A stretch of 64,000 nt of DNA from a phage. The notes beneath the pieces are model-generated. The model was given only the letters and a program-made list of their open reading frames with translations, was not told the DNA's origin and did no database searches. Shown here piece by piece: positions 12,159-64,000 of this stretch; positions within the stretch are counted from its first letter, which is position 1; each line of letters starts with the position of its first letter. Both the position numbers and the translations under genes were made by a program. The DNA lies in the sequence record PZ674596.1; one strand, given 5' to 3'.

Positions 12159-12691
12159 ACCGCTGACAGCATACACAATCAACTACCGCTGATAGCATAT
12201 CGAGAGTCTATCTCACCGCTCACAGCATACTTTACTCGATTTTTTACCGCTGACAGCATACTTAAGAAATTGCATGAATAATGTGTCCCGGTATGGGTAT
12301 AACCAGAACAAAATTACCGCTGGCAGCATACGAATGTCTGACATATACCATTAATTACCGCTGATAGCATATCCAAACAAAAATTCCTCAATAAAACACC
12401 GCTGACAGCATACGTTCTATCAGGGAGTAGCAGGCAATAAATGCCTTTCACTACAAGCAATCAGCGCAATAGCAATAGAATGTTAGTGAGCGCAAACCTA
12501 TATGGAATGCACTCTTCGAGGTTAGTAACCACTGGGGAGGTATGACAGAGCATTGAGTGGTGATAGATGATTTACCGCTCACAGCATACGTTCATCTCAC
12601 TATACCGCTGGTAGCATATCTTTAACCGTTCACAGCATACTTTTCAGAAAAATAGCCGCTGATAGCATACATTTCACCGCTGACAGCATAT
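12159..12691. repeat. iteron array: 12 direct copies of 16-bp ACCGCTGACAGCATAC (incA-like, downstream of repA)
   Basis: Copies start near 12159, 12185, 12215, 12246, 12316, 12357, 12398, 12574, 12604, 12625, 12655, 12676; all in one orientation, 1-2 mismatches each. Confidence 0.85.
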
Positions 12692-13785
12692 CAAAGCAGT
12701 TTGAGACTATTGGAAAGGATCTCAATCATCTTGATATTTTCAGGCGTCAAATTCTGCGAAAGTTCGGTTATCTTGTTGATAATGTTCTGTTTGGCATCAA
12801 TTTCCCCAGCTTTCTCATCTGGTTTTTTGGGTTCGATGTCTTCAGGTTTTGGCGGTGCGACTTTGAGTTTTGGATTGCGGCTGTGAATCTGGATATAGAT
12901 CGACCGCCCACGCTTAATCTCGCTGTATTCGAGATAGCCCAAATCTTGGAGAGCTTTTAAGCCGTTACGTATAGTCTGATTCTGCGAGCTGACATTCCTG
13001 CTACTCAAATTGAGTCGCGCACGCAATCGAGCAAGCGATACCGGCGCAGGCTTGGTTGGAAGACTTTCGATGAAGGTGTACAGAGCCTGTGCTGTTTCTT
13101 TGCGTGGTAGCTTATTGATAACCTTTAACTGCAAAAGAACCTTATGGTCAAAGCGATATAGTTCGGCCAGCTTCGGTTCTGCATAGAACACCACCGTATC
13201 TTTCTGCTCGTTGTAGTCCACGCTATTGATGAGGTGCACCATCAGAAGCGAGATCTTGTTAGAGCCGTCGACGTTCTTTTCTTCATACGTTCTCTGGAAA
13301 GACAGAGTTGTACGCATGATCTTCAAAAGACTGTTTGTAAGCCGGTCGCGGAGTGTTTTGCGGATCTGTGACGATGGATAGCCACAAAACTTAGCAAATT
13401 TCGTGATGCTTAACTCGACACGACCGTTAGGTTCGCCGTATTCTGCCAGCGAACGCACAACGCCCACCCACGTTTTGAAATCATGATCCATGTCGAGACG
13501 AGGACCGGTTATCTTGATATCGGAATAGCCTTCAGAACGGGCTACTTCGAGCTGGACAAGCTCCTTTGAAGCATCGATCTCATTTGGCTTGTTACGTTTA
13601 CTGTATTTTGTTCCCTTAAGCGTGGGGACGAACAACCCCAGTCGCATCAACGCAATTGGTTGGACTGTATTGTTGCTATTAGGGACAAGTTCCCCTGTGT
13701 ACAATTCAAGGGAACCTTCTTCAAAGTTGTCGATGTTATCTTCTACTTCTTTGTTATTTTTACCTTTTTTATTTTTTGTGGACAT
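12691..13785 (-). CDS. repA: plasmid replication initiator RepA (P1 RepA / RepFIB-like)
   Basis: 364 aa from ATG 13785 (the table's N-terminal 40 aa is read-through of the iteron region); motifs SNNTVQPIALMRLG, DIKITGPRLDMD, LYTFIESLP, HSRNPKLK match my recollection of P1 RepA; flanked by iterons on both sides. Confidence 0.8.
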   Translation of the reverse strand: MSTKNKKGKNNKEVEDNIDNFEEGSLELYTGELVPNSNNTVQPIALMRLGLFVPTLKGTKYSKRNKPNEIDASKELVQLEVARSEGYSDIKITGPRLDMDHDFKTWVGVVRSLAEYGEPNGRVELSITKFAKFCGYPSSQIRKTLRDRLTNSLLKIMRTTLSFQRTYEEKNVDGSNKISLLMVHLINSVDYNEQKDTVVFYAEPKLAELYRFDHKVLLQLKVINKLPRKETAQALYTFIESLPTKPAPVSLARLRARLNLSSRNVSSQNQTIRNGLKALQDLGYLEYSEIKRGRSIYIQIHSRNPKLKVAPPKPEDIEPKKPDEKAGEIDAKQNIINKITELSQNLTPENIKMIEILSNSLKLL

Positions 13786-13805
13786 GTGGACACCTTTGTC
13801 ATTCA

Positions 13806-13907
13806 ACCGCTGACAGCATACTTGATTTGCCGCTGACAGAATACCAAAAACAGTTGGCAGCATACGGTGAACCGCTGACAGACTATCAATTACCGCTGAC
13901 AGCATAC
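13806..13907. repeat. upstream iterons (4 full + 1 half copy), incC/origin-like
   Basis: Same 16-bp iteron near 13806, 13829, 13871, 13892 plus half-site GGCAGCATAC near 13856. Confidence 0.75.
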
Positions 13908-13947: not shown

Positions 13948-14020
13948 GATCGGGGATCTTATTTGATCTATATAAGGATCTATCTATGGATCTCTTTATT
14001 AGGATCTATCCTGTGGATAT
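13948..14020. promoter_or_regulatory. origin-like region: six GATC sites in ~60 bp plus DnaA-box-like TGTGGATAT
   Basis: GATC at about 13948, 13955, 13965, 13977, 13989, 14003; CCTGTGGATAT at 14010-14020; next to the iterons. Confidence 0.55.
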
Positions 14021-25824: not shown

Positions 25825-26297
25825 AGATGATAGCTGCTGTTGGCCGTAACTATGAGATCGGCATAGCGAACGAACTGCCCTGGCGTTGTTCTACCGATCT
25901 GAAGCTATTTAAGAGACTCACCAAAAACGCCACTGTCGTTATGGGGCGTAAAACGATGGAAAGTCTCAAACGCCCTCTTCCAGAGCGTCATAACCTCGTT
26001 TTGACGCGCTCTCATGGCTTTGTACCAAATGGATTCTACCCTGCTGGTGTGGATGATGTGTTGCGATTACCAGAGCCTGTGTGGGTGATTGGCGGGGAAC
26101 AAATTTACTCGCTATTCATGCCGCATGTTGAAGAGATTTGGCTCTCCCACATCGGCGTTGATGTGCCAAACGCCGATGCATTCTTCCCGGCAAGCATGAT
26201 GCGTAATTTAGGCTTTGTGCCTGTTGAAACAGCTTATACCCAACGAGCCAGCGAGGAAGAGCCTGGCTTTTCGCAGATCGTATACAGAAGGTCGTAA
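25821..26297 (+). CDS. folA: dihydrofolate reductase
   Basis: 158 aa; DHFR-like N-terminus MIAAVGRNYEIG..LPW and VVMGRKT; adjacent to thyA as in T4 td/frd. Confidence 0.85.
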   Translation: MKMIAAVGRNYEIGIANELPWRCSTDLKLFKRLTKNATVVMGRKTMESLKRPLPERHNLVLTRSHGFVPNGFYPAGVDDVLRLPEPVWVIGGEQIYSLFMPHVEEIWLSHIGVDVPNADAFFPASMMRNLGFVPVETAYTQRASEEEPGFSQIVYRRS

Positions 26298-26941
26298 TGG
26301 ATTACCGGATTGGGATCACTGGTGCTCAGGGCAGTGGGAAAACAACCCTGGCTAAATATATCGACAAACATTACGGAATCCCTTACGTGGATGCTGGTGT
26401 CGGAAGTTTGATGAGCCGCCTCGGTGTTCGAGTAGGTGATTCTATGCCTCTATATGAGCGGCTTCAGATTCAAATGGAAATAGCAAAGCATATAGAGCTA
26501 CTTACGCGTGGTGCTGAAGGCTTTGTTATCGATCGCACACCTGCTGATGTTATGGCCTACACGTTGGATTTGGTCGGCCATACAAATGAAGATCGGTGTA
26601 TTGAGTTAGCCCTCGATATCGAAAAGTTTTGCCACAAAACTGCTATTTCAAACTTTAACGCCATTGCTGGCCTACGCCCGGGGGGCGCTCTCTCAGAGCG
26701 AGATTACTTGCGGTCACAACGAGCATCATTAGACCGTCTGTATGTCGCTCGTATTGATGCGTTGATGTGCGGGGAACTGACAAAAATTCACCTGCATCCG
26801 CAAAGGGGAGATCTGCAAACCTTCGTCGTTTCCAACCGGTATCGCACAGTTGAAGCAAGAGCCAGATCAGTGATGAGAATGCTAGATAACGCTGTAGAAA
26901 AGATAGAAAACCGGTTCTGTGGCCGAGTGACCGTTCATTAG
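26297..26941 (+). CDS. P-loop nucleoside/nucleotide kinase-like protein
   Basis: 214 aa; Walker A GITGAQGSGKTT at N-terminus. Confidence 0.5.
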   Translation: MDYRIGITGAQGSGKTTLAKYIDKHYGIPYVDAGVGSLMSRLGVRVGDSMPLYERLQIQMEIAKHIELLTRGAEGFVIDRTPADVMAYTLDLVGHTNEDRCIELALDIEKFCHKTAISNFNAIAGLRPGGALSERDYLRSQRASLDRLYVARIDALMCGELTKIHLHPQRGDLQTFVVSNRYRTVEARARSVMRMLDNAVEKIENRFCGRVTVH

Positions 26942-27002: not shown

Positions 27003-27422
27003 ATGTTTAGTGAAATGTTGCTTGAAGATGAACTGGATCGGAAAACAACAGAGGCTTTGATTCGTGTAGCGGACGAACATTCCCGGTCGCTTATGAGCGA
27101 TCGAGAGGCTCGTCTGGCTATTCGTGCCATATTCGAAACTGCGCAGGGGCTTGTTGGCGCACAAGTAGGTGAAGCCATTAACATCGCCATGTCTCAGTTC
27201 AGTGAAGACAGTAAAAAGCCTCTGTTTCCTATGCATTTGATGCTGGCTGGTGGCACGGTGCTTTATATCTCTGTTTGTCTGGATAGCAACCAAATCAATA
27301 TTCTCAACACTGCGTCAGGTAAGTGGAAAGATCCGATTGTCTGTGAAACCAGTGAAGAAACTTTGAAAAAAGCGGCTCAATTTGTACGTAGCGCACTACT
27401 TAAGGGCGCTAAGAAGTTGTAA
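27003..27422 (+). CDS. hypothetical protein
   Basis: 139 aa; no recognised motif. Confidence 0.45.
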   Translation: MFSEMLLEDELDRKTTEALIRVADEHSRSLMSDREARLAIRAIFETAQGLVGAQVGEAINIAMSQFSEDSKKPLFPMHLMLAGGTVLYISVCLDSNQINILNTASGKWKDPIVCETSEETLKKAAQFVRSALLKGAKKL

Positions 27423-27431
27423 GGAGTAGTA

Positions 27432-28226
27432 ATGGGACAACCGGTAGACATAACAGGTAAACGTTTTGGAAAGTTGGTTGCACTTAAATATTCCGGTATT
27501 TCAAACAAACAAGGGCGACTTTGGGATTGCATCTGCGATTGCGGCAACACCTGCCTGGTTAGTTACGGGAAGCTAAATCACGGGGCGACAATATCGTGTG
27601 GCTGTGTCTACAACGCACATCGCCGTAGCGTAAAGCCTCATGGTATGAGTAAAACGCCAATTTATCGTATATGGCTGGGTATGCGGGAACGATGTGAAAA
27701 ACCAACCCATCACGCCTATAAGTGGTATGGCGGCCGAGGTATCAAAGTCTGCGAGCGGTGGCAAATATTTGAAAATTTTTATGCTGACATGGGAGAGCGA
27801 CCAGAGGGGATGTCTCTTGATCGCAAAGATGTGAATGGTGACTACGAACCTGAAAATTGCAGATGGGCGACTTTTGAAGAACAGGCCAATAACACGCGTT
27901 CAAACTTAATTTTGGAGCATAAGGGGGAAAAGCTGACTCTCTCACAATGGGCTAAAAGAGCCGGGATTCAGACATCAACTCTTCACTATCGAATCAAGAA
28001 AGGGTGGCCATTAGATCGCGCGCTTAACGCCAGCGTCGACACGTATGCCAACCGAGATAGTAAGCGTCTGATCGAGTGTCGCGGCAGAACTCAGCGAATT
28101 ACCGAATGGGCTAGAGAGGTTGGCTTGACTGCGACCATTATCTCGCAGCGAATTTTGAGGGGGTGGGATGTTGAAGCTGCCATCTTCACACCGTCCAAAC
28201 GACCAGTAAAAGGAGATAAAAAGTGA
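27432..28226 (+). CDS. HNH endonuclease (homing-endonuclease-like)
   Basis: 264 aa; Cys cluster CDCGNTC..SCGC and HNH-like core DRKDVNGDYEPENCRWATFEEQANN. Confidence 0.6.
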   Translation: MGQPVDITGKRFGKLVALKYSGISNKQGRLWDCICDCGNTCLVSYGKLNHGATISCGCVYNAHRRSVKPHGMSKTPIYRIWLGMRERCEKPTHHAYKWYGGRGIKVCERWQIFENFYADMGERPEGMSLDRKDVNGDYEPENCRWATFEEQANNTRSNLILEHKGEKLTLSQWAKRAGIQTSTLHYRIKKGWPLDRALNASVDTYANRDSKRLIECRGRTQRITEWAREVGLTATIISQRILRGWDVEAAIFTPSKRPVKGDKK

Positions 28227-28771
28227 TTGCTACAGGGGTGGACATCGAATCAACAGGTCTTGATTTCCTCTCAGGCCATAAAATCATTGAAATCGCAATG
28301 GTGAAGTACGAAATTGAGACACAGACAATGGTTGATAGTTTTGTAATGCGGTTCAACCCGCGTCGCAGTATCGATCCGAAAGCGCAAGCGGTACACGGCA
28401 TCAGTCTTGAAGATTTAGCCGCCGAGCCGTTACTAGCCGATCACGCTTCATCTGTCGCTTCGTATCTCTCTTCTTCCGATATTTGGATAGCCCACAACGG
28501 CGAAGCGTTCGATATTCCGTTTATTAGGCATGAGCTGAAAAGTTACGGTTTTTCGCTTCCAGACATCCCATTGATTGACACTCTATTTTCCCTGTGGGCC
28601 ACAGAAGACGGTAAACGTCCCCGCCTTGAAGAGTTGGCCTTCTCTCTTGGCTTTATATACGATCATGCCAAAGCACATAGTGCCTTATATGACACAAACT
28701 TAATGATGCAATGCTTCTTTAAGGCACGTAATAAGTACGGATTTTTTAAATTACCCTCTGAAATTGTGTAA
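28223..28771 (+). CDS. DnaQ-like 3'-5' exonuclease (DEDDh)
   Basis: Exo motifs GVDIESTGLD, HNGEAFDIPF, H-x4-D (AHSALYD); GTG start after AAAGGAG. Confidence 0.8.
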   Translation: MIATGVDIESTGLDFLSGHKIIEIAMVKYEIETQTMVDSFVMRFNPRRSIDPKAQAVHGISLEDLAAEPLLADHASSVASYLSSSDIWIAHNGEAFDIPFIRHELKSYGFSLPDIPLIDTLFSLWATEDGKRPRLEELAFSLGFIYDHAKAHSALYDTNLMMQCFFKARNKYGFFKLPSEIV

Positions 28772-28775
28772 AACA

Positions 28776-28814
28776 AAAGCCTACTTTAAAAAGTTTAAAG
28801 TAGGCTTTCTTTTA
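28776..28814 (+). terminator. Rho-independent terminator
   Basis: 15-bp stem AAAGCCTACTTTAAA / TTTAAAGTAGGCTTT followed by T-rich run. Confidence 0.7.
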
Positions 28815-28929
28815 AAGAACAGTCGCCTTTCAATCATTTCCTGCCTGTATTTAATACTTTTCCGCCTGATAGGTTTAGTCAAAATGCAGCCATCGAAACG
28901 CAAATGTAACCAAACAGAAGGAGACTTAC

Positions 28930-29739
28930 ATGAGTTCGGTTGAAAATGTAATGACAAATGATGATCTGGACGAGCTGACAGCCATGTTGCAATCACTTGA
29001 TGAACCAGTAAAAAAAGCTGCACAGGTTGAAAATACTGATGATATTGACGATCTGCTGCTCGGCCTAGATGCTGGCGTAGCCATGAGTTCTGATGATGTT
29101 GCCGAAGAACTGTTCAATGAAGAAAAAGCAGGTGATTTCAGCTCTGCTTTAAATGAGTTGGAGTTAGCGCATGAGCCTATAAACATAATTAACGCTGAAA
29201 GTGTTGAAGCTGCCGAAAACGAGCCAGAACAATTGGGATTTATTGAGGTTGAAGAGTGTGTTGAGGTTAATGATGAATTAAAAGTTCAACAGTCAAATGA
29301 TAGCAATACAAATAAAAAAGCTCGTACTGCAAGAGGTCCTCGTTTTACTTTAAGTGATAAAGATGATTCGTTTTTCAATAAAGCGGGCTTAGAAAAAGAT
29401 ATTTTCTTAGACGCTTACGATAACGCGCCTGTCAAAGCAAAGGATAAGATATTAAACCTTCTTAATTGGTTTAGCGGAGGTCCAGATATTAGTGTTTACA
29501 CGGTAATTTCCATGAGACACCTTCTCACAGAAAAGAAGGCTACAAGTAATAGTATTAAGATTGCTTTAATGAGCAATCCAGAAAAACCGTATCCGCTTAA
29601 TACTGCGTCAACTCAGGCTGGGCAAATGATGGCTGTATTTCCAGCGACAGGAATTGCCGTTAGAGACGGTGGAAATCTAACATTGAACGAAGAATCACCG
29701 ATCGTTAAGAAGTTTGTCGCGGAGTACACTATTGGATGA
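28930..29739 (+). CDS. acidic hypothetical protein (candidate DNA mimic)
   Basis: 269 aa; N-terminal ~120 aa very rich in D/E; RBS AAGGAG. Confidence 0.5.
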   Translation: MSSVENVMTNDDLDELTAMLQSLDEPVKKAAQVENTDDIDDLLLGLDAGVAMSSDDVAEELFNEEKAGDFSSALNELELAHEPINIINAESVEAAENEPEQLGFIEVEECVEVNDELKVQQSNDSNTNKKARTARGPRFTLSDKDDSFFNKAGLEKDIFLDAYDNAPVKAKDKILNLLNWFSGGPDISVYTVISMRHLLTEKKATSNSIKIALMSNPEKPYPLNTASTQAGQMMAVFPATGIAVRDGGNLTLNEESPIVKKFVAEYTIG

Positions 29740-29813
29740 CGTTCCCCTACTTAAAATAAAGCCCATAGAGAGCTTTATAGTACTGGGTAAGCCAATCACA
29801 TACCCAGCACCAC

Positions 29814-29860
29814 AAAAACGCGCCAGAGAGCTTCTCGTTTGCATTTCTGGCGCGTTTTAT
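29814..29860. terminator. bidirectional hairpin terminator
   Basis: AAAACGCGCCAGA...TCTGGCGCGTTTT perfect inverted repeat. Confidence 0.6.
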
Positions 29861-29922
29861 TTGATTGCCAGACATAAAATCAAATGCAAAAATAGGTATA
29901 TACTTACCTATCGAGAAAGAAG

Positions 29923-30516
29923 ATGATTGCAGCCGAAAAAATCAAACAGCGAAAGCGCGACAACTCTCTTCGTGACCTCTGGAGAACACCTGACTGGCTG
30001 TTTTCTGCCATTCAACGTTATCTTGGAGTGACATTTGATGTTGACGTTGCCTGCAACAAGGACAATGCAAAGCTGCCTAATTTCATAGGCGTTGAGCGTG
30101 ATGCTTTGAAATCTGAATGGGGACAGCCAGGTACAATTGCCTTCCTCAATCCACCCTACTCCAAAATCTACCCCTGGATTGATGCGGCTATACGTGAGCA
30201 GGCTCGTGGAGTTACAACAGTGATGCTAATTCCTCAATCCCTAGATACAAAGTGGTATGAGCGTGCAACAGAGTGTGCGAATGAGACGATTATTCTGTCT
30301 GGTGGCCGCGTAGCGTTTGTCGAGCCTGACGTAAATCTGGGTCAGGTAGAAGTAAACATCAACCCAGGTGGCAGTATGCTCGTTGTTTTTCGAGGATTCT
30401 GTCAGGACGCTGGGCACTCTATAAGCAAGATCCCTTTGGACGTCATGAAAAGTCTGGGAGGGTATGATCCTGCGAATGTGATCAGGAAAAAAAGACCATC
30501 AAAGAAGGCTGCTTAG
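29923..30516 (+). CDS. phage-type N6-adenine DNA methyltransferase (Dam-like)
   Basis: 197 aa; catalytic motif FLNPPYS; small size typical of phage Dam family. Confidence 0.75.
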   Translation: MIAAEKIKQRKRDNSLRDLWRTPDWLFSAIQRYLGVTFDVDVACNKDNAKLPNFIGVERDALKSEWGQPGTIAFLNPPYSKIYPWIDAAIREQARGVTTVMLIPQSLDTKWYERATECANETIILSGGRVAFVEPDVNLGQVEVNINPGGSMLVVFRGFCQDAGHSISKIPLDVMKSLGGYDPANVIRKKRPSKKAA

Positions 30517-30537
30517 TTTGTTCTGGCGTCTGTAATT

Positions 30538-30595
30538 AGCCTGCTTCTGTATATATAAATAACTACATATTAATTATTAATATACGGAAGCAGGC
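30538..30595. repeat. large AT-rich palindrome (copy 1 of 2)
   Basis: AGCCTGCTTCTGTATATATAAAT...ATATACGGAAGCAGGC; near-identical arms recur at 63197-63251. Confidence 0.7.
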
Positions 30596-30701
30596 AGCTT
30601 TGTATCAGAGACTCCAGACCTGAACATCACTACAGAATCCACTAGAACCCCTTCCCAGACGCTTTAAAATCGATTTTATGAACCACTTTAAGGAAACCAA
30701 C

Positions 30702-30932
30702 ATGTCATACCCGACTAATGTCGTTGCGCTCGTAGAGAGCGATTTTCTGGCCCAGGCTCGTGAAATGATGAAAGATCGTGAGCAGGCTTTCAACTTGTAC
30801 GAATGGGCAATTAAGTGCTTGCATCTTGGCGAGCATCGCGAACTTGTTGAACAGCTTTTAGGTGAGTTGATCAATGAGGTGTTTGCCTTGAATGTTCAAC
30901 TACATGGTAGAGAAAATAATCAATCACAATGA
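30702..30932 (+). CDS. hypothetical protein
   Basis: 76 aa from ATG after AAGGAAACC; table ORF starts 24 nt earlier. Confidence 0.4.
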   Translation: MSYPTNVVALVESDFLAQAREMMKDREQAFNLYEWAIKCLHLGEHRELVEQLLGELINEVFALNVQLHGRENNQSQ

Positions 30933-31514
30933 TAGATAAGTACAAACTATTCATAAAGTGAATTGTAAGTGCTAAGATCTGATAGTTTCCAGTCGTAGAC
31001 TGGAGACTCGACCTGATGGGTGGGGGTAAGCGTCACTGGCGTCAGGTTTAAAAAAGCTCACTACCAGCGTAGAACTGGTGCCGTTTAGGTGTCGGGGAAG
31101 GGGGAACCAAAGTGAGCAGAGACAAGGGTCACTTTATGATTGTCGAGTCTGGGGTGTTTCGAGAGGTTGAATCCAGTACTCCCCTTCATAAAGTGTGGGA
31201 AGATCTCGGTTCTGGGGTGCTGTCATCCATAACTTCCCAAGTCTAAGCTGGCAGTAGACTTAGACCATAACTTTTCAGGTTATGAAACGACCAGGTTGGT
31301 GAGAGATTTTTATACTCACCTCCCTGGGAGAGTATTACCTGAAAAGACAACCTCTCACTTCGTTCGAGGTGAACTTCACTCACTTCGTTCGTTCAGTTCA
31401 GGTTTATAAAAACCTGTTCTGGGAAGTAATTTGTTTATTTTAATAATTATTAACACGCACGCGTGTGCGCACGCGCGAGGAAAAATCGGCGCGGCGCTTG
31501 ATTCAGGAGTTTAT

Positions 31515-34470: not shown

Positions 34471-36156
34471 ATGAATACAGCCCTTTCCATCATCGACGAT
34501 GCCAGCTCAAACACGGCTATCGACTATCGTCAGGAAATGAATGTCATCCACGAAATCGTGGCCGAGTGCGAGAAAGAGATCGCCTTCATGTATCAGGTAC
34601 ACGACTTCGTTTATGGCGACGAACGCCACAACATGATTAATCGCCTGCTGAGACTAAACCATCGACCAGATGAAGATCGCTCGCGTTTAAATCGAGGTTG
34701 GTTGGATAAAGTCGATCTGGAATGGGTGAAACAGAATATTTGGGCCGAGTACTGGAGGAAGGTCACGGACATGACTAACGTTTTGCTGATCATGCCAGCT
34801 TCCCGTCGAGATGAGTGGCGCGAGCAGTTTATAGAGGGCAAACAGGAAGTCATCAAAACTGACAGAACCGGCTACCAGATGAAGGTTAAAGAGTTCGTTG
34901 GTGTACCGGAGTTCAAAGCAGAAACGGTCATACCCACGATGCTTAATTTGCTGAATGACAGGCACAAATATCTCTCTGAGCGCGTGTATGGCTTGTTTAA
35001 GGCGCTGAGTCCTGCGCACAAGACAAATAAGACAAACGGTTTCAGCGAGCGGCTGATAATCGCTGACTGCATTTCTGATTTCTGGCGGGACAGCGTTAGC
35101 GTGAACTATCGCAAAGAGGACTACATCGACGATCTGCGTGTCTTGCTTCATTTCTTCGCGCACAAAGAATTTATTACCATCAACCGCACTGCTGAGGTGC
35201 TATCAGCTGCGTATCGGGCAAACGACTGCCAGACCGGTGACTGGATGAACGTCGATGGAAATCTGATGCGCGTGAAGATGTTCAAGAACGGCAACGTTCA
35301 CTTTGAAATACATCCTGACGTGGCCTGGAAGTTGAATGAGGTGCTGGCTTACAGTATGCCTGCTGCAATCCCCGCGCCATGTCGCACCGCGCCAAAAACA
35401 CGGGCACCAAAGCAGTTCGGGTTAATCCAGAAGACGATCTCCGTGCCGGTTCGCACTGCGCTTCGTGACGGGCGATTGAGCAAAGACAAAGGCGTATGGT
35501 ACTTCTCTGATTCAGCTCTCCAGAAGTCGCAGGTGGAAGAGCTTGAGCGCACACTGAGCTTCATTGGCGGCGTGCAGGAGAAAAAACACTGGCAGTTCCC
35601 GTATGACATCGTCCATACGCTAAATACGATTGTGGCTACCGGATTAATACCGGATACAAAATCACACCAGTTCTACCCTACCCCACGCTTGATTGCTGAG
35701 TACGTTGCCAGAGCCACTGAATTGAAGCCTGGTGAGAAGCTGCTGGAGCCTCAAGCCGGACGTGGGGATCTTCTGGCCTATATTAACGCCGATCTGGAAG
35801 ATGTTACCTGCATAGAAATCGCACCTCTCTTCGCTGATATCCTGCGTGGAAAAGGGTATACGAACACGATTTGCTGCGACTTCATAAAGTGGTCTGAGGA
35901 CAACGCAGGTTATCAGTTCGACAAAATCGTTATGAACCCGCCGTACTCGCTTGGTCGTCATAGAGAGCACACTCTGGCTGCGCTTGGGCATCTGAAAGTC
36001 GGCGGGCGTCTTGTAGCAGTATTGCCGGGCACTGCGCCAATACTGGACTGGATGACGATGGATAATTACGTTTATGCCAGAGGGAAGTCGTTTACCAACG
36101 AGTTTGAAGACACAGGGATCACAGTCAGCGTATACGTTTTCAAACGCGTTAAATGA
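34471..36156 (+). CDS. large protein with C-terminal N6-adenine DNA methyltransferase domain
   Basis: 561 aa; SAM-binding-like LEPQAGRGDL then catalytic VMNPPYS near C-terminus; ~400 aa N-terminal region of unknown function. Confidence 0.6.
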   Translation: MNTALSIIDDASSNTAIDYRQEMNVIHEIVAECEKEIAFMYQVHDFVYGDERHNMINRLLRLNHRPDEDRSRLNRGWLDKVDLEWVKQNIWAEYWRKVTDMTNVLLIMPASRRDEWREQFIEGKQEVIKTDRTGYQMKVKEFVGVPEFKAETVIPTMLNLLNDRHKYLSERVYGLFKALSPAHKTNKTNGFSERLIIADCISDFWRDSVSVNYRKEDYIDDLRVLLHFFAHKEFITINRTAEVLSAAYRANDCQTGDWMNVDGNLMRVKMFKNGNVHFEIHPDVAWKLNEVLAYSMPAAIPAPCRTAPKTRAPKQFGLIQKTISVPVRTALRDGRLSKDKGVWYFSDSALQKSQVEELERTLSFIGGVQEKKHWQFPYDIVHTLNTIVATGLIPDTKSHQFYPTPRLIAEYVARATELKPGEKLLEPQAGRGDLLAYINADLEDVTCIEIAPLFADILRGKGYTNTICCDFIKWSEDNAGYQFDKIVMNPPYSLGRHREHTLAALGHLKVGGRLVAVLPGTAPILDWMTMDNYVYARGKSFTNEFEDTGITVSVYVFKRVK

Positions 36157-59916: not shown

Positions 59917-59998
59917 AAACCTCTTTCCTTAGTGCCTTTTGTATGTTATTTGGCTATTATAATAAGTAAGTGATTACTTAGTGGATTGTAGCAATAAA

Positions 59999-60679
59999 AT
60001 GGATGTAAAAATCACGATTTTGCAGGTTGATGTTGCCAACCTTCGCCCGAATACCTGGAACACCAATTCGGTTGGTGCGCAGAATTTTGAAAAACTGAAA
60101 GGTTCTATCGAAAAATTGGGCTTTTTTAAGCCAATTTTGGCTCGTGAACTTGAAGATGGATTTTTTGAAATCCTCGGCGGCGAACATCGCTGGCGTGCTG
60201 CTATTGAGCAAGGAATTTCAACGGTTCCGGTGCTTTCTGTGGGCAAAATTAGCGATGTCGTAGCTAAACAGATGTCACTGGTGGACAACGAGCGATACGG
60301 TGAAGACGACCAAATCGCATTGCAACGCTTCATTGAAGAAATTCAGTCAGAACTTGACTATCAACTGTCTGAAATCGCCCCGTATGACGACGAAATCTCG
60401 ATGGTTTTAGCAAAAGAGGCGGCAATCGACCTTGAAGCACTGGAGGCGTTGTCTCGTGGTAGTGATGAGCCTGTCGATACCGACAAACGAGAGAAAACCG
60501 AACGTGTGGGTGCGGAACATCAGACCATGCGCTTCAAAGTAACTTTCGATGCGTCAGATCGTGTTGCAGAAACCATAAAAAACATCATCAAAGAGCAGGC
60601 TATTAACACCGGTAATGAAATGGAGAACGCTGGTGAGGCTCTGGTGTGGCTGGTCGACTACTACAAGGAGCGTATGTAA
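59999..60679 (+). CDS. ParB N-terminal-domain (ParB/Srx-like) protein 1
   Basis: GGEHRWRAA ParB box-II-like motif; start uncertain (ATG 59999 or GTG 59981). Confidence 0.5.
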   Translation: MDVKITILQVDVANLRPNTWNTNSVGAQNFEKLKGSIEKLGFFKPILARELEDGFFEILGGEHRWRAAIEQGISTVPVLSVGKISDVVAKQMSLVDNERYGEDDQIALQRFIEEIQSELDYQLSEIAPYDDEISMVLAKEAAIDLEALEALSRGSDEPVDTDKREKTERVGAEHQTMRFKVTFDASDRVAETIKNIIKEQAINTGNEMENAGEALVWLVDYYKERM

Positions 60680-61347
60680 TGACCAAAAAGTTTGAAATCG
60701 TATATCGCGACCCGGCAGATCTTATTCCCTATGAGATGAATGCCAAAAAGCATGATGAACAGCAGATCCGAGATCTGGCCGCAGCCATTAAAAAGCGCGG
60801 ATTTGACCAGCCAATTACGGTCGATAAGAACGACGTAATTATTACTGGCCACGGCCGCCGTGAGGCTGCAATTTTTGCTGGACTTGAGCGCGTACCGGTT
60901 ATTGTTCGCGATGATCTCAGTGATGACGAGGTTCGTGCGAAGCGCCTTGAAGATAACCGACTTGCCAGCATTGATTACGATGCAATTAAGCTACAGAAAG
61001 AGCTTGAGTCGCTTGTTCTGGACGATATCGAGGTTTTCGGCTTTGAAGAGCGTGAGTTGAATGTTCTCGTTGGCAGTATGACAGAAGAAATGGACACCGA
61101 TTCGCTAGTTATCGATCTTGGCGAAGAAACTAAACGACAGAAGGATGAACACACCGAGATCAGTCGTGAAGTTGCAGCGGAAGAAGTACGTGTTGTCGAC
61201 GTATTGGGCTTTAAAACGCTCCCTGCTGGCTCTGCCATTGTTGTTGGTGATTTGCTTGCCCACATGGAAGAAATGACGGGAGAAAGCGGGGTAGACGCAT
61301 TTGTGGCATATGCGGAGAAGATCTCTTCCGGGGAGATGGCTGCATGA
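60679..61347 (+). CDS. ParB N-terminal-domain (ParB/Srx-like) protein 2
   Basis: 222 aa from ATG overlapping upstream stop; ITGHGRREAA motif; acidic C-terminal half. Confidence 0.5.
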   Translation: MTKKFEIVYRDPADLIPYEMNAKKHDEQQIRDLAAAIKKRGFDQPITVDKNDVIITGHGRREAAIFAGLERVPVIVRDDLSDDEVRAKRLEDNRLASIDYDAIKLQKELESLVLDDIEVFGFEERELNVLVGSMTEEMDTDSLVIDLGEETKRQKDEHTEISREVAAEEVRVVDVLGFKTLPAGSAIVVGDLLAHMEEMTGESGVDAFVAYAEKISSGEMAA

Positions 61348-63368: not shown

Positions 63369-64000
63369 ATGACGGTCGAAAAAGACGAGGTAAAAACTCG
63401 CCTGACACCAGCGGAGTGGGCCGAAGCTGAAGCCAAATGGACGTCAGGCGAATATACACTCTCAAAGCTGGAGGAAGAGTACGGCATTCGTCGTGAAACA
63501 CTCTCCAGACATTTCAAAAAGCGAGGATTAGAGAAAGGCGCGGACTCTGTTGGGAAGATGGTTCGTGAGTCTCTTAAATCTGACGCAGAGCTTCGCGCTA
63601 AAGCTCGTGCGGAAAAGATAGAAGAACGTCGTACACGTTATGACGGCTGGGCGTATGCGTTGGGGCAGATGGTGATGGTCGAAGTCACTACGGCCAAACG
63701 TGAGGGTAAGCCTTTAGGGGCGATTGAGGATTCTCTCAAGAGCTTACAGAGAGCCAGTAATACCCTTGCAAAATGCTTTGAAGTTTCGTCCAAAGCATTG
63801 GGCATGGATCATGCGGAAAATGACGAGGAAGAAATTCCGAACCTGGTATTTGGTGAGCTTACGCCTTCCCAGGTGGCGAAATTACGTCAGGAAGACGACG
63901 AGCCTGAAATCATCGATGACGAATTGCTTGAGACGTTGGAAGAAGAAGCTCTAAGCGAATTTGATGCGACAGATGATGGAAGTGAAGGGGAGGACGAATA
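63369..64000 (+). CDS. hypothetical protein, 3' end outside window (possible DNA-binding / terminase small subunit-like)
   Basis: Open frame from ATG 63369 to window end (not in ORF table); very acidic downstream part; preceded by AAACAAGTTGTTTT motifs. Confidence 0.4.
   Translation, partial: MTVEKDEVKTRLTPAEWAEAEAKWTSGEYTLSKLEEEYGIRRETLSRHFKKRGLEKGADSVGKMVRESLKSDAELRAKARAEKIEERRTRYDGWAYALGQMVMVEVTTAKREGKPLGAIEDSLKSLQRASNTLAKCFEVSSKALGMDHAENDEEEIPNLVFGELTPSQVAKLRQEDDEPEIIDDELLETLEEEALSEFDATDDGSEGEDE

Follow-up and report, generated by a model that had tools for sequence, protein, structure and literature searches.

A phage protein with an acidic arm and a predicted winged-helix domain accompanies a DnaQ-like exonuclease in SSU5-like phage-plasmids and their relatives

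Introduction

Phage-plasmids of the SSU5/pHCM2 type occur widely in Salmonella, E. coli and Klebsiella, with resistance genes present in some of them (PMC9600943, PMC7969092). The DNA analyzed here, a stretch of 64,000 nucleotides from a phage (sequence record PZ674596.1; "the window" refers to this stretch at its full length), is an SSU5-like phage-plasmid, and the subject of this work is one of its genes, hereafter the acidic gene, whose 269-aa product starts with a strongly acidic part. A first-pass annotation made from the sequence had proposed that this product is a DNA mimic and that, together with a Dam-like methyltransferase encoded next to it and a second large methyltransferase about 4 kb downstream, it constitutes an anti-restriction module. 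According to the analysis presented below, the acidic gene is best described as coding for a known fold set in an architecture not described before and as representing a large uncharacterized phage family tied to the replication module.

Genes and Features at the Locus

The region around the acidic gene shares 97–99.8% identity with Escherichia phages CMS-2020a (99.8%), Cyrano and PhiR41_1 and is related to that of Salmonella phage SSU5, all four being SSU5-type phage-plasmids of ~105–110 kb. In Cyrano, the genes for ribonucleotide reductase, MazG, ThyX, polynucleotide kinase, DHFR, an AAA_28-type ATPase and a hypothetical protein are followed by those for an epsilon-like exonuclease, another hypothetical protein (the counterpart of the acidic gene product), adenine methyltransferase and RNase H, with a DUF4942 methyltransferase farther along. 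This order places the acidic gene within a block of DNA replication and nucleotide metabolism. Elsewhere the phage encodes its own replication proteins (DnaB-type helicase, primase, ligase, DnaE-type Pol III alpha and a gp32-like single-stranded DNA-binding protein, SSB) and recombination proteins (UvsY, a RecA/UvsX-like protein, SbcCD and RuvC). The features of the locus, all on the plus strand, are as follows.

28223..28771, +, DnaQ/epsilon-like DEDDh 3′-5′ exonuclease, 182 aa (PF00929 RNase_T, E 1.3e-22)
28776..28808, +, terminator-like hairpin 3′ of the exonuclease gene (inverted repeat, 20-nt arms), then UUUCUUUU
28918..28923, +, Shine-Dalgarno sequence AAGGAG, 6 nt ahead of the ATG of the acidic gene (sequence reading)
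28930..29739, +, acidic gene, 269 aa, acidic arm and predicted winged helix, ATG start (open reading frame (ORF) listing; PHROG 5235)
28930..29169, +, acidic region, residues 1–80, with three amphipathic repeats (predicted helices of low confidence, pLDDT 53–81)
29170..29313, +, hypervariable acidic linker, residues 81–128 (predicted disordered, pLDDT 31–39)
29314..29346, +, basic patch KKARTARGPRF, residues 129–139 (composition and alignment)
29347..29736, +, C-terminal helical and winged-helix domain, residues 140–269 (predicted fold, alignment)
29815..29858, +, terminator-like hairpin 3′ of the acidic gene (inverted repeat, perfect 13-nt arms), then UUUUAUUU
29865..29893, +, sigma-70 promoter-like site ahead of Dam, TTGCCA-17 nt-AAAAAT with extended TG (consensus match only)
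29923..30516, +, phage-type N6-adenine methyltransferase (Dam), 197 aa (PF05869, TIGR01712, phrog_111)
34471..36156, +, DUF4942 protein with C-terminal NPPY methyltransferase, 561 aa (PF13708, E 1.3e-20; phrog_6263)

The hairpin behind the exonuclease gene is predicted to fold as RNA with −17.9 kcal/mol (z = −4.7) and that behind the acidic gene with −26.2 kcal/mol (z = −5.6), each being accompanied by a U-run. Since the total of promoter-like sites in the region is not above chance, the one preceding Dam is regarded as a candidate. The hairpins with U-runs around the acidic gene, taken together with this promoter-like site, argue that Dam belongs to a separate transcription unit. No Rfam match was obtained for RNA elements within 28000–31500. 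Just 3′ of the Dam stop codon one more hairpin is found at 30539–30595 (16-nt arms, −27 kcal/mol, z = −5.5), possessing an AT-rich loop and having no U-run after it.

The counterpart of the exonuclease in Cyrano is annotated as 'Exonuclease, PolIII subunit epsilon', and the catalytic residues D7, E9, D97, H152 and D157 are invariant in the exonuclease alignment. Its gene is preceded by an HNH homing-endonuclease gene (27432–28226, +; phrog_374, E 2e-79) inserted between the genes of a small hypothetical protein and the exonuclease and missing from Cyrano and CMS-2020a. Because nucleotide identity to these two phages restarts only at 28593, the 5′ part of the exonuclease gene must have been replaced too. 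In an SSU5-like relative (GCA_002632585.1, NIBV01000004.1), genes for a HigB-like toxin and an HTH_3 antitoxin are inserted between those of the exonuclease and the acidic protein, so that this junction tolerates cargo.

Composition and Conservation of the Acidic Protein

The charge profile of the protein is sharply divided. Residues 1–120 contain 34 D/E (28%) and only 4 K/R, giving a pI of 4.05, whereas residues 121–269 with 16 D/E and 19 K/R are slightly basic (pI 9.1). The first-pass description of an acidic N-terminal part of ~120 aa, to be checked by pI and charge profile, thus holds, "dominated" by D/E being a slightly generous word for a share of 28%. Comparison of the 59 window ORFs that reach 120 aa or more shows that no stretch of 120 aa is as acidic as the one in this protein (net −31, the runner-up having −24). 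Other acidic stretches of this length are found in the ORFs at 63369–64000 (net −24), 60646–61347 (−21) and 59981–60679 (−18).

Three amphipathic repeats within residues 1–80 (NDDLDELTAML, TDDIDDLLLGL and SDDVAEELF) are discernible also as a direct repeat at the DNA level, at 28958, 29036 and 29090. Across the family they correspond to a motif with the consensus (D/E)(D/E)-L-D-A-L-L-x-(D/E)-L-(E/D), which is present in one to three copies per member and occurs 0.67 times per protein among family representatives against 0.10 in composition-matched shuffles, that is, with ~7-fold enrichment. A basic patch (≥5 K/R within 15 aa) is found in 87% of representatives, and among SSU5-like members its R138 is invariant and F139 almost so. 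Conservation of the three segments, expressed as identity to the window protein, is very uneven:

Residues 1–80: SSU5-like members 43%; whole family 23%
Linker, residues 81–134: SSU5-like members 19%; whole family 11%
C-terminal domain, residues 135–269: SSU5-like members 70%; whole family 33%

In 134 family representatives, obtained by clustering at 50% identity, mean net charge is −20 for the N-terminal part and ~0 for the C-terminal 135 aa. An average of −20 kept over so many diverged representatives indicates that the acidity is not due to chance, and in combination with the low identity of the arm it implies that the arm has kept its charge without keeping its sequence. In the C-terminal domain, K169, K173, N176, T225 and Q232 are invariant across the family. 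The conserved polar residues follow an i, i+4, i+7 spacing on two helices (K169/K173/N176 and T225/Q229/Q232), and the domain is recognizable by the signature segments 'PKKVxEKxxN...LSxYT' and 'PYxxGTAxSQxxQMMxLLPxLGIA'.

Predicted Fold

In the full-length AlphaFold2 model only residues 140–269 are confident, while residues 21–132 have pLDDT 31–67, with 54–67 for residues 21–80 and <50 for residues 81–132. Modeling of the domain separately, with an alignment of 82 sequences, resulted in pLDDT 95.6 and pTM 0.89 and in the order of elements H-H-H-H-E-H-H-E-E-H, a winged-helix topology comprising a helix-turn-helix and a beta-hairpin wing. Structural neighbors of the predicted domain are nearly all transcriptional regulators (ArsR, MarR, Fur, PadR and MecI); Foldseek returned the same kinds of matches, without significance. 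As a prediction, the assignment of the C-terminal domain to the winged-helix fold with ArsR/SmtB-like topology is solid. Together with the composition data, the models describe the protein as tripartite, consisting of an acidic, mostly disordered arm, a short basic patch and a highly conserved winged-helix domain.

No Pfam helix-turn-helix or winged-helix model (HTH_5, HTH_20, MarR, PadR and others) matched the window protein or 139 family members at E ≤ 1, and sequence searches against PDB, run both with the protein alone and with a profile of 139 sequences, gave low-complexity matches only. Membership in a specific family of regulators is therefore unsupported.

Family and Its Distribution

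The protein matches phrog_5235 over its full length (residues 1–269, E 2.5e-149) and phrog_3932 over residues 169–265 only (E 4.4e-15); these are its sole PHROG matches, both annotated as 'unknown function', and no match was found in Pfam, NCBIfam or PADLOC. Nor was any consistent Pfam family detected among the 139 family members scanned. Word-indexed search retrieved 55 close homologues, all 'hypothetical' and most of them on contigs of 100–120 kb. An exhaustive profile search extended the family to 663 representatives at E ≤ 1e-3 (276 at E ≤ 1e-10), the majority having 220–300 aa and matching over the whole profile. Added domains or fusions were absent from family members, including those of atypical length in either direction, and a second search of a large database with the family profile brought no new names, Pfam domains or fusions.

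Nearly all carriers are phages of 100–120 kb infecting several proteobacterial hosts (Enterobacteria, Pseudomonas, Stenotrophomonas and Rhizobium). Cultured representatives comprise SSU5-like elements, Pseudomonas Nickievirus, Stenotrophomonas phages ANB28 and BUCTxx99, and RHEph10-like phages of Rhizobium, with genomes of 103–122 kb and with the family protein annotated as hypothetical in all of them. This range matches the relationships described by Pfeifer et al., in whose analysis the SSU5 supergroup is distantly related to the AB and pCAV groups, phage Nickie and RHEph10 (PMC7969092). A paper characterizing the 269-aa protein, or an anti-restriction role of the locus, was not found in the literature.

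Exonuclease and Methyltransferase as Neighbors

Neighboring genes were surveyed in 166 loci carrying homologues of the acidic gene, 85 of them SSU5-like and 81 distant, using six-frame ORFs and iterated HMMs (hidden Markov models); all loci fall within one broad clade and some of the contigs are redundant, for which reason the counts do not represent independent events.

DnaQ-like exonuclease, same strand, SSU5-like loci: 83/85, all upstream, median gap 159 bp
DnaQ-like exonuclease, same strand, distant loci: 74/81; 71 upstream, 47 within 1.5 kb
Dam-family methyltransferase, SSU5-like loci: 85/85, adjacent, median gap 184 bp
Dam-family methyltransferase, distant loci: 0/81

In total, the exonuclease occupies the same strand at 157/166 loci, and the nine exceptions are truncated, having <1.2 kb of upstream sequence. 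Dam was not found in the 81 distant loci even at E ≤ 10, and an ORF with a (D/N/S)PP(Y/F/W) motif occurs within 7 kb in only ~12 of them, at variable positions. Dam is thus a lineage-specific neighbor. In BLAST clustering of all neighbors, wide sharing was limited to the exonuclease, the AAA_28 protein and the upstream small hypothetical protein; downstream genes vary. The association also holds in the reciprocal direction: the acidic protein is encoded downstream in 28/28 loci retrieved via its exonuclease subfamily and in 0/9 loci with generic DnaQ-like exonucleases. Judging by gene content, the putative proofreading exonuclease is the evolutionarily constant companion of the acidic gene, and the two appear to be inherited together. 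In SSU5-like phage-plasmids and their 100–120 kb relatives, moreover, the acidic gene belongs to the core of the block for replication and nucleotide metabolism.

Upstream of the exonuclease gene lie those of the AAA_28-type ATPase (214 aa, 26297–26941), conserved in 33/81 distant loci, and of a 139-aa protein of unassigned function (27003–27422, phrog_5373), conserved in 49/81. ATPase, hypothetical protein, exonuclease and acidic winged-helix protein make up a small conserved block.

Methyltransferases and the Plasmid Origin

Both methyltransferases named in the first-pass annotation are real. The Dam ORF exceeds the cut-offs of PF05869 (131.6 bits versus 28.1) and of TIGR01712 phage_N6A_met (113.2 bits versus 97.05) and carries the catalytic NPPY at residues 76–79; in PADLOC it is matched best by 'orphan methyltransferase' entries, and a partner endonuclease is lacking. 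The 561-aa ORF matches phrog_6263 'DNA methyltransferase' with E 4e-299 and starts 3,955 bp past the Dam stop codon, i.e., 3.96 kb downstream, in line with the 4 kb stated there. On sequence grounds, the ORF at 29923–30516 is a genuine orphan phage methyltransferase of the Dam family, apparently acquired in the SSU5 lineage only.

Characterized phage Dam-family members target GATC, and phage orphan methyltransferases are an established route of restriction evasion. GATC is not avoided in the window, its observed-to-expected ratio of 0.84 being like that of other palindromes. The replicon of the element resembles P1 oriR/incA. Its repA ORF (12691–13905, minus strand) is accompanied by the iteron CCGCTGACAGCATAC, 12 copies of which are located downstream of repA (12160–12691) and 5 upstream (13807–13907), with 19 matches in all versus 1.06 expected. 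Beyond the five iterons, six (G)GATC sites are packed into 56 bp of AT-rich DNA (13948–14006), followed by the DnaA-box-like sequence TGTGGATAT at 14012–14020. Such a combination of iterons, GATC cluster and DnaA-box-like site suggests a Dam-sensitive plasmid origin. Function of the P1 origin reportedly depends on Dam methylation, an observation said to be that of Abeles and Austin in 1987, and with a P1-oriR-like origin present here a role of the phage Dam in replication control becomes plausible. The enzyme may protect from restriction, act at the plasmid origin with its GATC-rich, P1-oriR-like layout, or do both.

Possible Function of the Acidic Protein

Our tentative reading, to which we give somewhat less than an even chance, is that the 269-aa protein binds DNA and assists the replication module of the phage, its acidic arm serving either to recruit partners or to mask the protein itself. 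The winged helix and the basic patch would bind nucleic acid or a conserved phage-encoded partner in the replisome, and the tethered polyanionic arm would recruit partner proteins via its amphipathic motifs; alternatively, the arm might fold back on the binding surface and act as a built-in competitor. So arranged, the protein would be an accessory or organizer of phage DNA replication or recombination and not a free DNA decoy. Partner recruitment or surface masking is what the acidic tails of SSB, T4 gp32 and T7 gp2.5 and region 1.1 of sigma-70 are known for. Since residues of the binding surface hardly vary between phages of alpha- and gamma-proteobacterial hosts (Rhizobium, Pseudomonas and Enterobacteria), the ligand would be expected to be host-invariant as well, for instance generic DNA or a phage-encoded partner.

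Several circumstances weigh against this assignment. Synteny in phages may mirror the inheritance of modules and not a physical or functional interaction, and the clade is single and includes redundant contigs, as stated above. The C-terminal domain is only mildly basic family-wide, with net charge ~0, and winged helices can be protein-binding modules too, as exemplified by cullin WHB, RPA32C and kleisins. No conserved DNA site was revealed, and iterons, direct-repeat arrays and palindromes are absent from the gene and its immediate surroundings; the one strong intergenic palindrome, AACAAnTTGTT, does not track the family. Fold-back of the arm is a model-based proposition, and the models come without estimates of inter-domain error.

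Three more specific assignments were considered and rejected. A role of the acidic gene as origin or iteron locus is at variance with the lack of repeat arrays there, the recurrent 15-mer CCGCTGACAGCATAC representing the RepA iterons at 12.1–13.9 kb. The idea of a "missing SSB" fails because the phage already encodes a gp32-like SSB. Finally, AACAAnTTGTT was tried as the operator of the acidic protein and dismissed, as it is strongly enriched in SSU5-like loci (153 versus 1.9 expected) and not in distant loci that carry the family (7 versus 0.65). In the window this palindrome occurs exactly 10 times (22002, 33004, 33733, 42982, 46920, 46971, 50077, 50980, 51744 and 63317), nearly always in intergenic positions and often 30–45 bp ahead of a start codon; it probably serves a lineage-specific regulator as operator or promoter element.

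An alternative that we hold to be unlikely, though deserving attention before the others, assumes a transcription factor, whose winged helix would occupy a promoter or operator shared by the clade while the arm contacts host RNA polymerase, in the manner of a T4 MotA-like activator or of an autoregulated repressor. The kinship of the structural neighbors, nearly all of which are transcriptional regulators, is in line with this assumption, as are the resemblance of the acidic amphipathic motifs to activation-domain peptides and the position of the gene as a stand-alone unit between hairpins. Yet the helix predicted to recognize DNA hardly varies among phages whose hosts are very different, and a shared DNA motif was not found, the enrichment of AACAAnTTGTT being large only in SSU5-like loci. 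Besides, surfaces of host RNA polymerase to be contacted vary between hosts, and none of the 139 members matches a helix-turn-helix or winged-helix model of Pfam.

The remaining alternatives attribute the function to the negative charge as such. It is improbable, in our estimate, that the winged helix provides an anchor to phage DNA or the replisome while the polyanionic arm serves as a local DNA mimic blocking or stripping host DNA-binding proteins, for example nucleoid proteins, complexes of type I restriction-modification (R-M) or BREX, or nucleases. An arm charge of about −30, conserved family-wide while the sequence is not, fits a charge-based function, and in SSU5-like elements the gene does stand beside an orphan methyltransferase. 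The arm, however, is predicted disordered, in contrast to the rigid folded scaffolds of known DNA mimics. Outside one lineage neither methyltransferases nor other counter-defense genes are associated with the protein, and the gene is situated inside the replication block and not in an early or leading region. A generalized version, equally a long shot, would be a class of "tethered polyanions", anchored on phage DNA or on the phage Pol III alpha-epsilon replisome, in which the disordered arm with its LDxLL-type motifs hands off host clamp or SSB or locally excludes DNA-binding defense and nucleoid proteins of the host. The original proposal of a free Ocr/ArdA-like mimic, forming one anti-restriction module with the Dam-like and the downstream large methyltransferase, we regard as the least probable of all. 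What stands of it is the acidic N-terminus and two real methyltransferases within 5 kb, the small one of orphan phage type, and evasion of restriction by phage orphan methyltransferases is well established. The parts on the DNA mimic and on the module are unsupported: acidity is confined to the N-terminal 45% of the protein, which is of low confidence or disordered in the model and predicted to be flexible, and which is joined to a basic patch and winged helix; a basic winged-helix domain makes up half of the protein; and profile searches of Pfam, PHROGs, NCBIfam and PADLOC gave no match to Ocr, ArdA or any annotated anti-restriction family. Dam, adjacent in 85/85 SSU5-like loci, is found in 0/81 distant ones, where the exonuclease is constant instead, and is separated from the acidic gene by the −26 kcal/mol hairpin with U-run, the other terminator-like hairpin and the promoter-like site of Dam pointing the same way. 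A DNA-mimic role is accordingly unlikely.

The protein is thereby recognized as a conserved uncharacterized gene product of SSU5/pHCM2-type elements, common to distant lytic- or plasmid-type relatives in Pseudomonas, Stenotrophomonas and Rhizobium. Co-inheritance of the predicted winged helix and acidic arm with the exonuclease offers a handle on how these phages operate or control a DnaE-type replisome of their own, and the analysis takes away a tempting but unsupported annotation as "DNA mimic". If the tethered-polyanion reading were true, DNA mimicry would be achieved by charge and tethering and not by rigid shape. The family itself is conserved throughout a clade of 100–120 kb phages and phage-plasmids, clinically relevant SSU5- and pHCM2-type plasmids among them. 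On the present evidence the addition is solid, not startling.

Comparison with Known Systems

The simplest comparison concerns the methyltransferase, since the window Dam shares with the phage Dam family (PF05869/TIGR01712) scores above both thresholds, the NPPY motif, a fitting size of 197 aa and the lack of an endonuclease, and differs from it in nothing notable. With the anti-restriction proteins Ocr (T7 gp0.3) and ArdA, the 269-aa protein has in common the strong negative charge, comparable in magnitude (net ~−30 over 120 aa), and the coding by a mobile element. Those proteins, however, are acidic throughout and form rigid dimers whose carboxylates trace B-DNA, whereas here acidity is restricted to the N-terminal 45%, which is predicted flexible and is fused to the basic patch and winged helix. 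A compact, rigid, B-DNA-like carboxylate fold is not apparent in the AlphaFold2 model, a prediction in which only the non-acidic residues 140–269 fold confidently, and membership by sequence or profile in Ocr, ArdA, ArdB/KlcA or the anti-restriction PHROGs was not detected with Pfam, NCBIfam, PADLOC and PHROGs.

ArsR/SmtB and MarR regulators, which share the predicted topology, differ by sequence identity of 4–15% (at most 17% to any match listed), by metal or ligand sites that the 269-aa protein does not have, and by the absence of its acidic N-terminal extension of ~130 residues; its alpha3-alpha4 loop is also unusually long and conserved (PEKPYP). T4 MotA differs as well, its C-terminal domain having a "double-wing" fold and its N-terminal domain being folded and helical, with no match to the 269-aa protein in sequence or structure. 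The general plan of MotA is nevertheless similar: a small two-part phage protein, conserved in its clade, in which a partner-binding N-terminal part is connected through a linker to a C-terminal DNA-binding domain. Compared with the tails of SSB, T4 gp32 and T7 gp2.5, the arm is N-terminal and not C-terminal, the attached module is a predicted winged helix instead of an OB fold, and a gp32-like SSB is already encoded by the phage. By analogy, these tails and region 1.1 of sigma-70 may still offer a likeness, in that a disordered polyanionic segment is attached to a module for nucleic-acid binding, includes a short conserved motif of hydrophobic and acidic residues and is encoded among replication genes.

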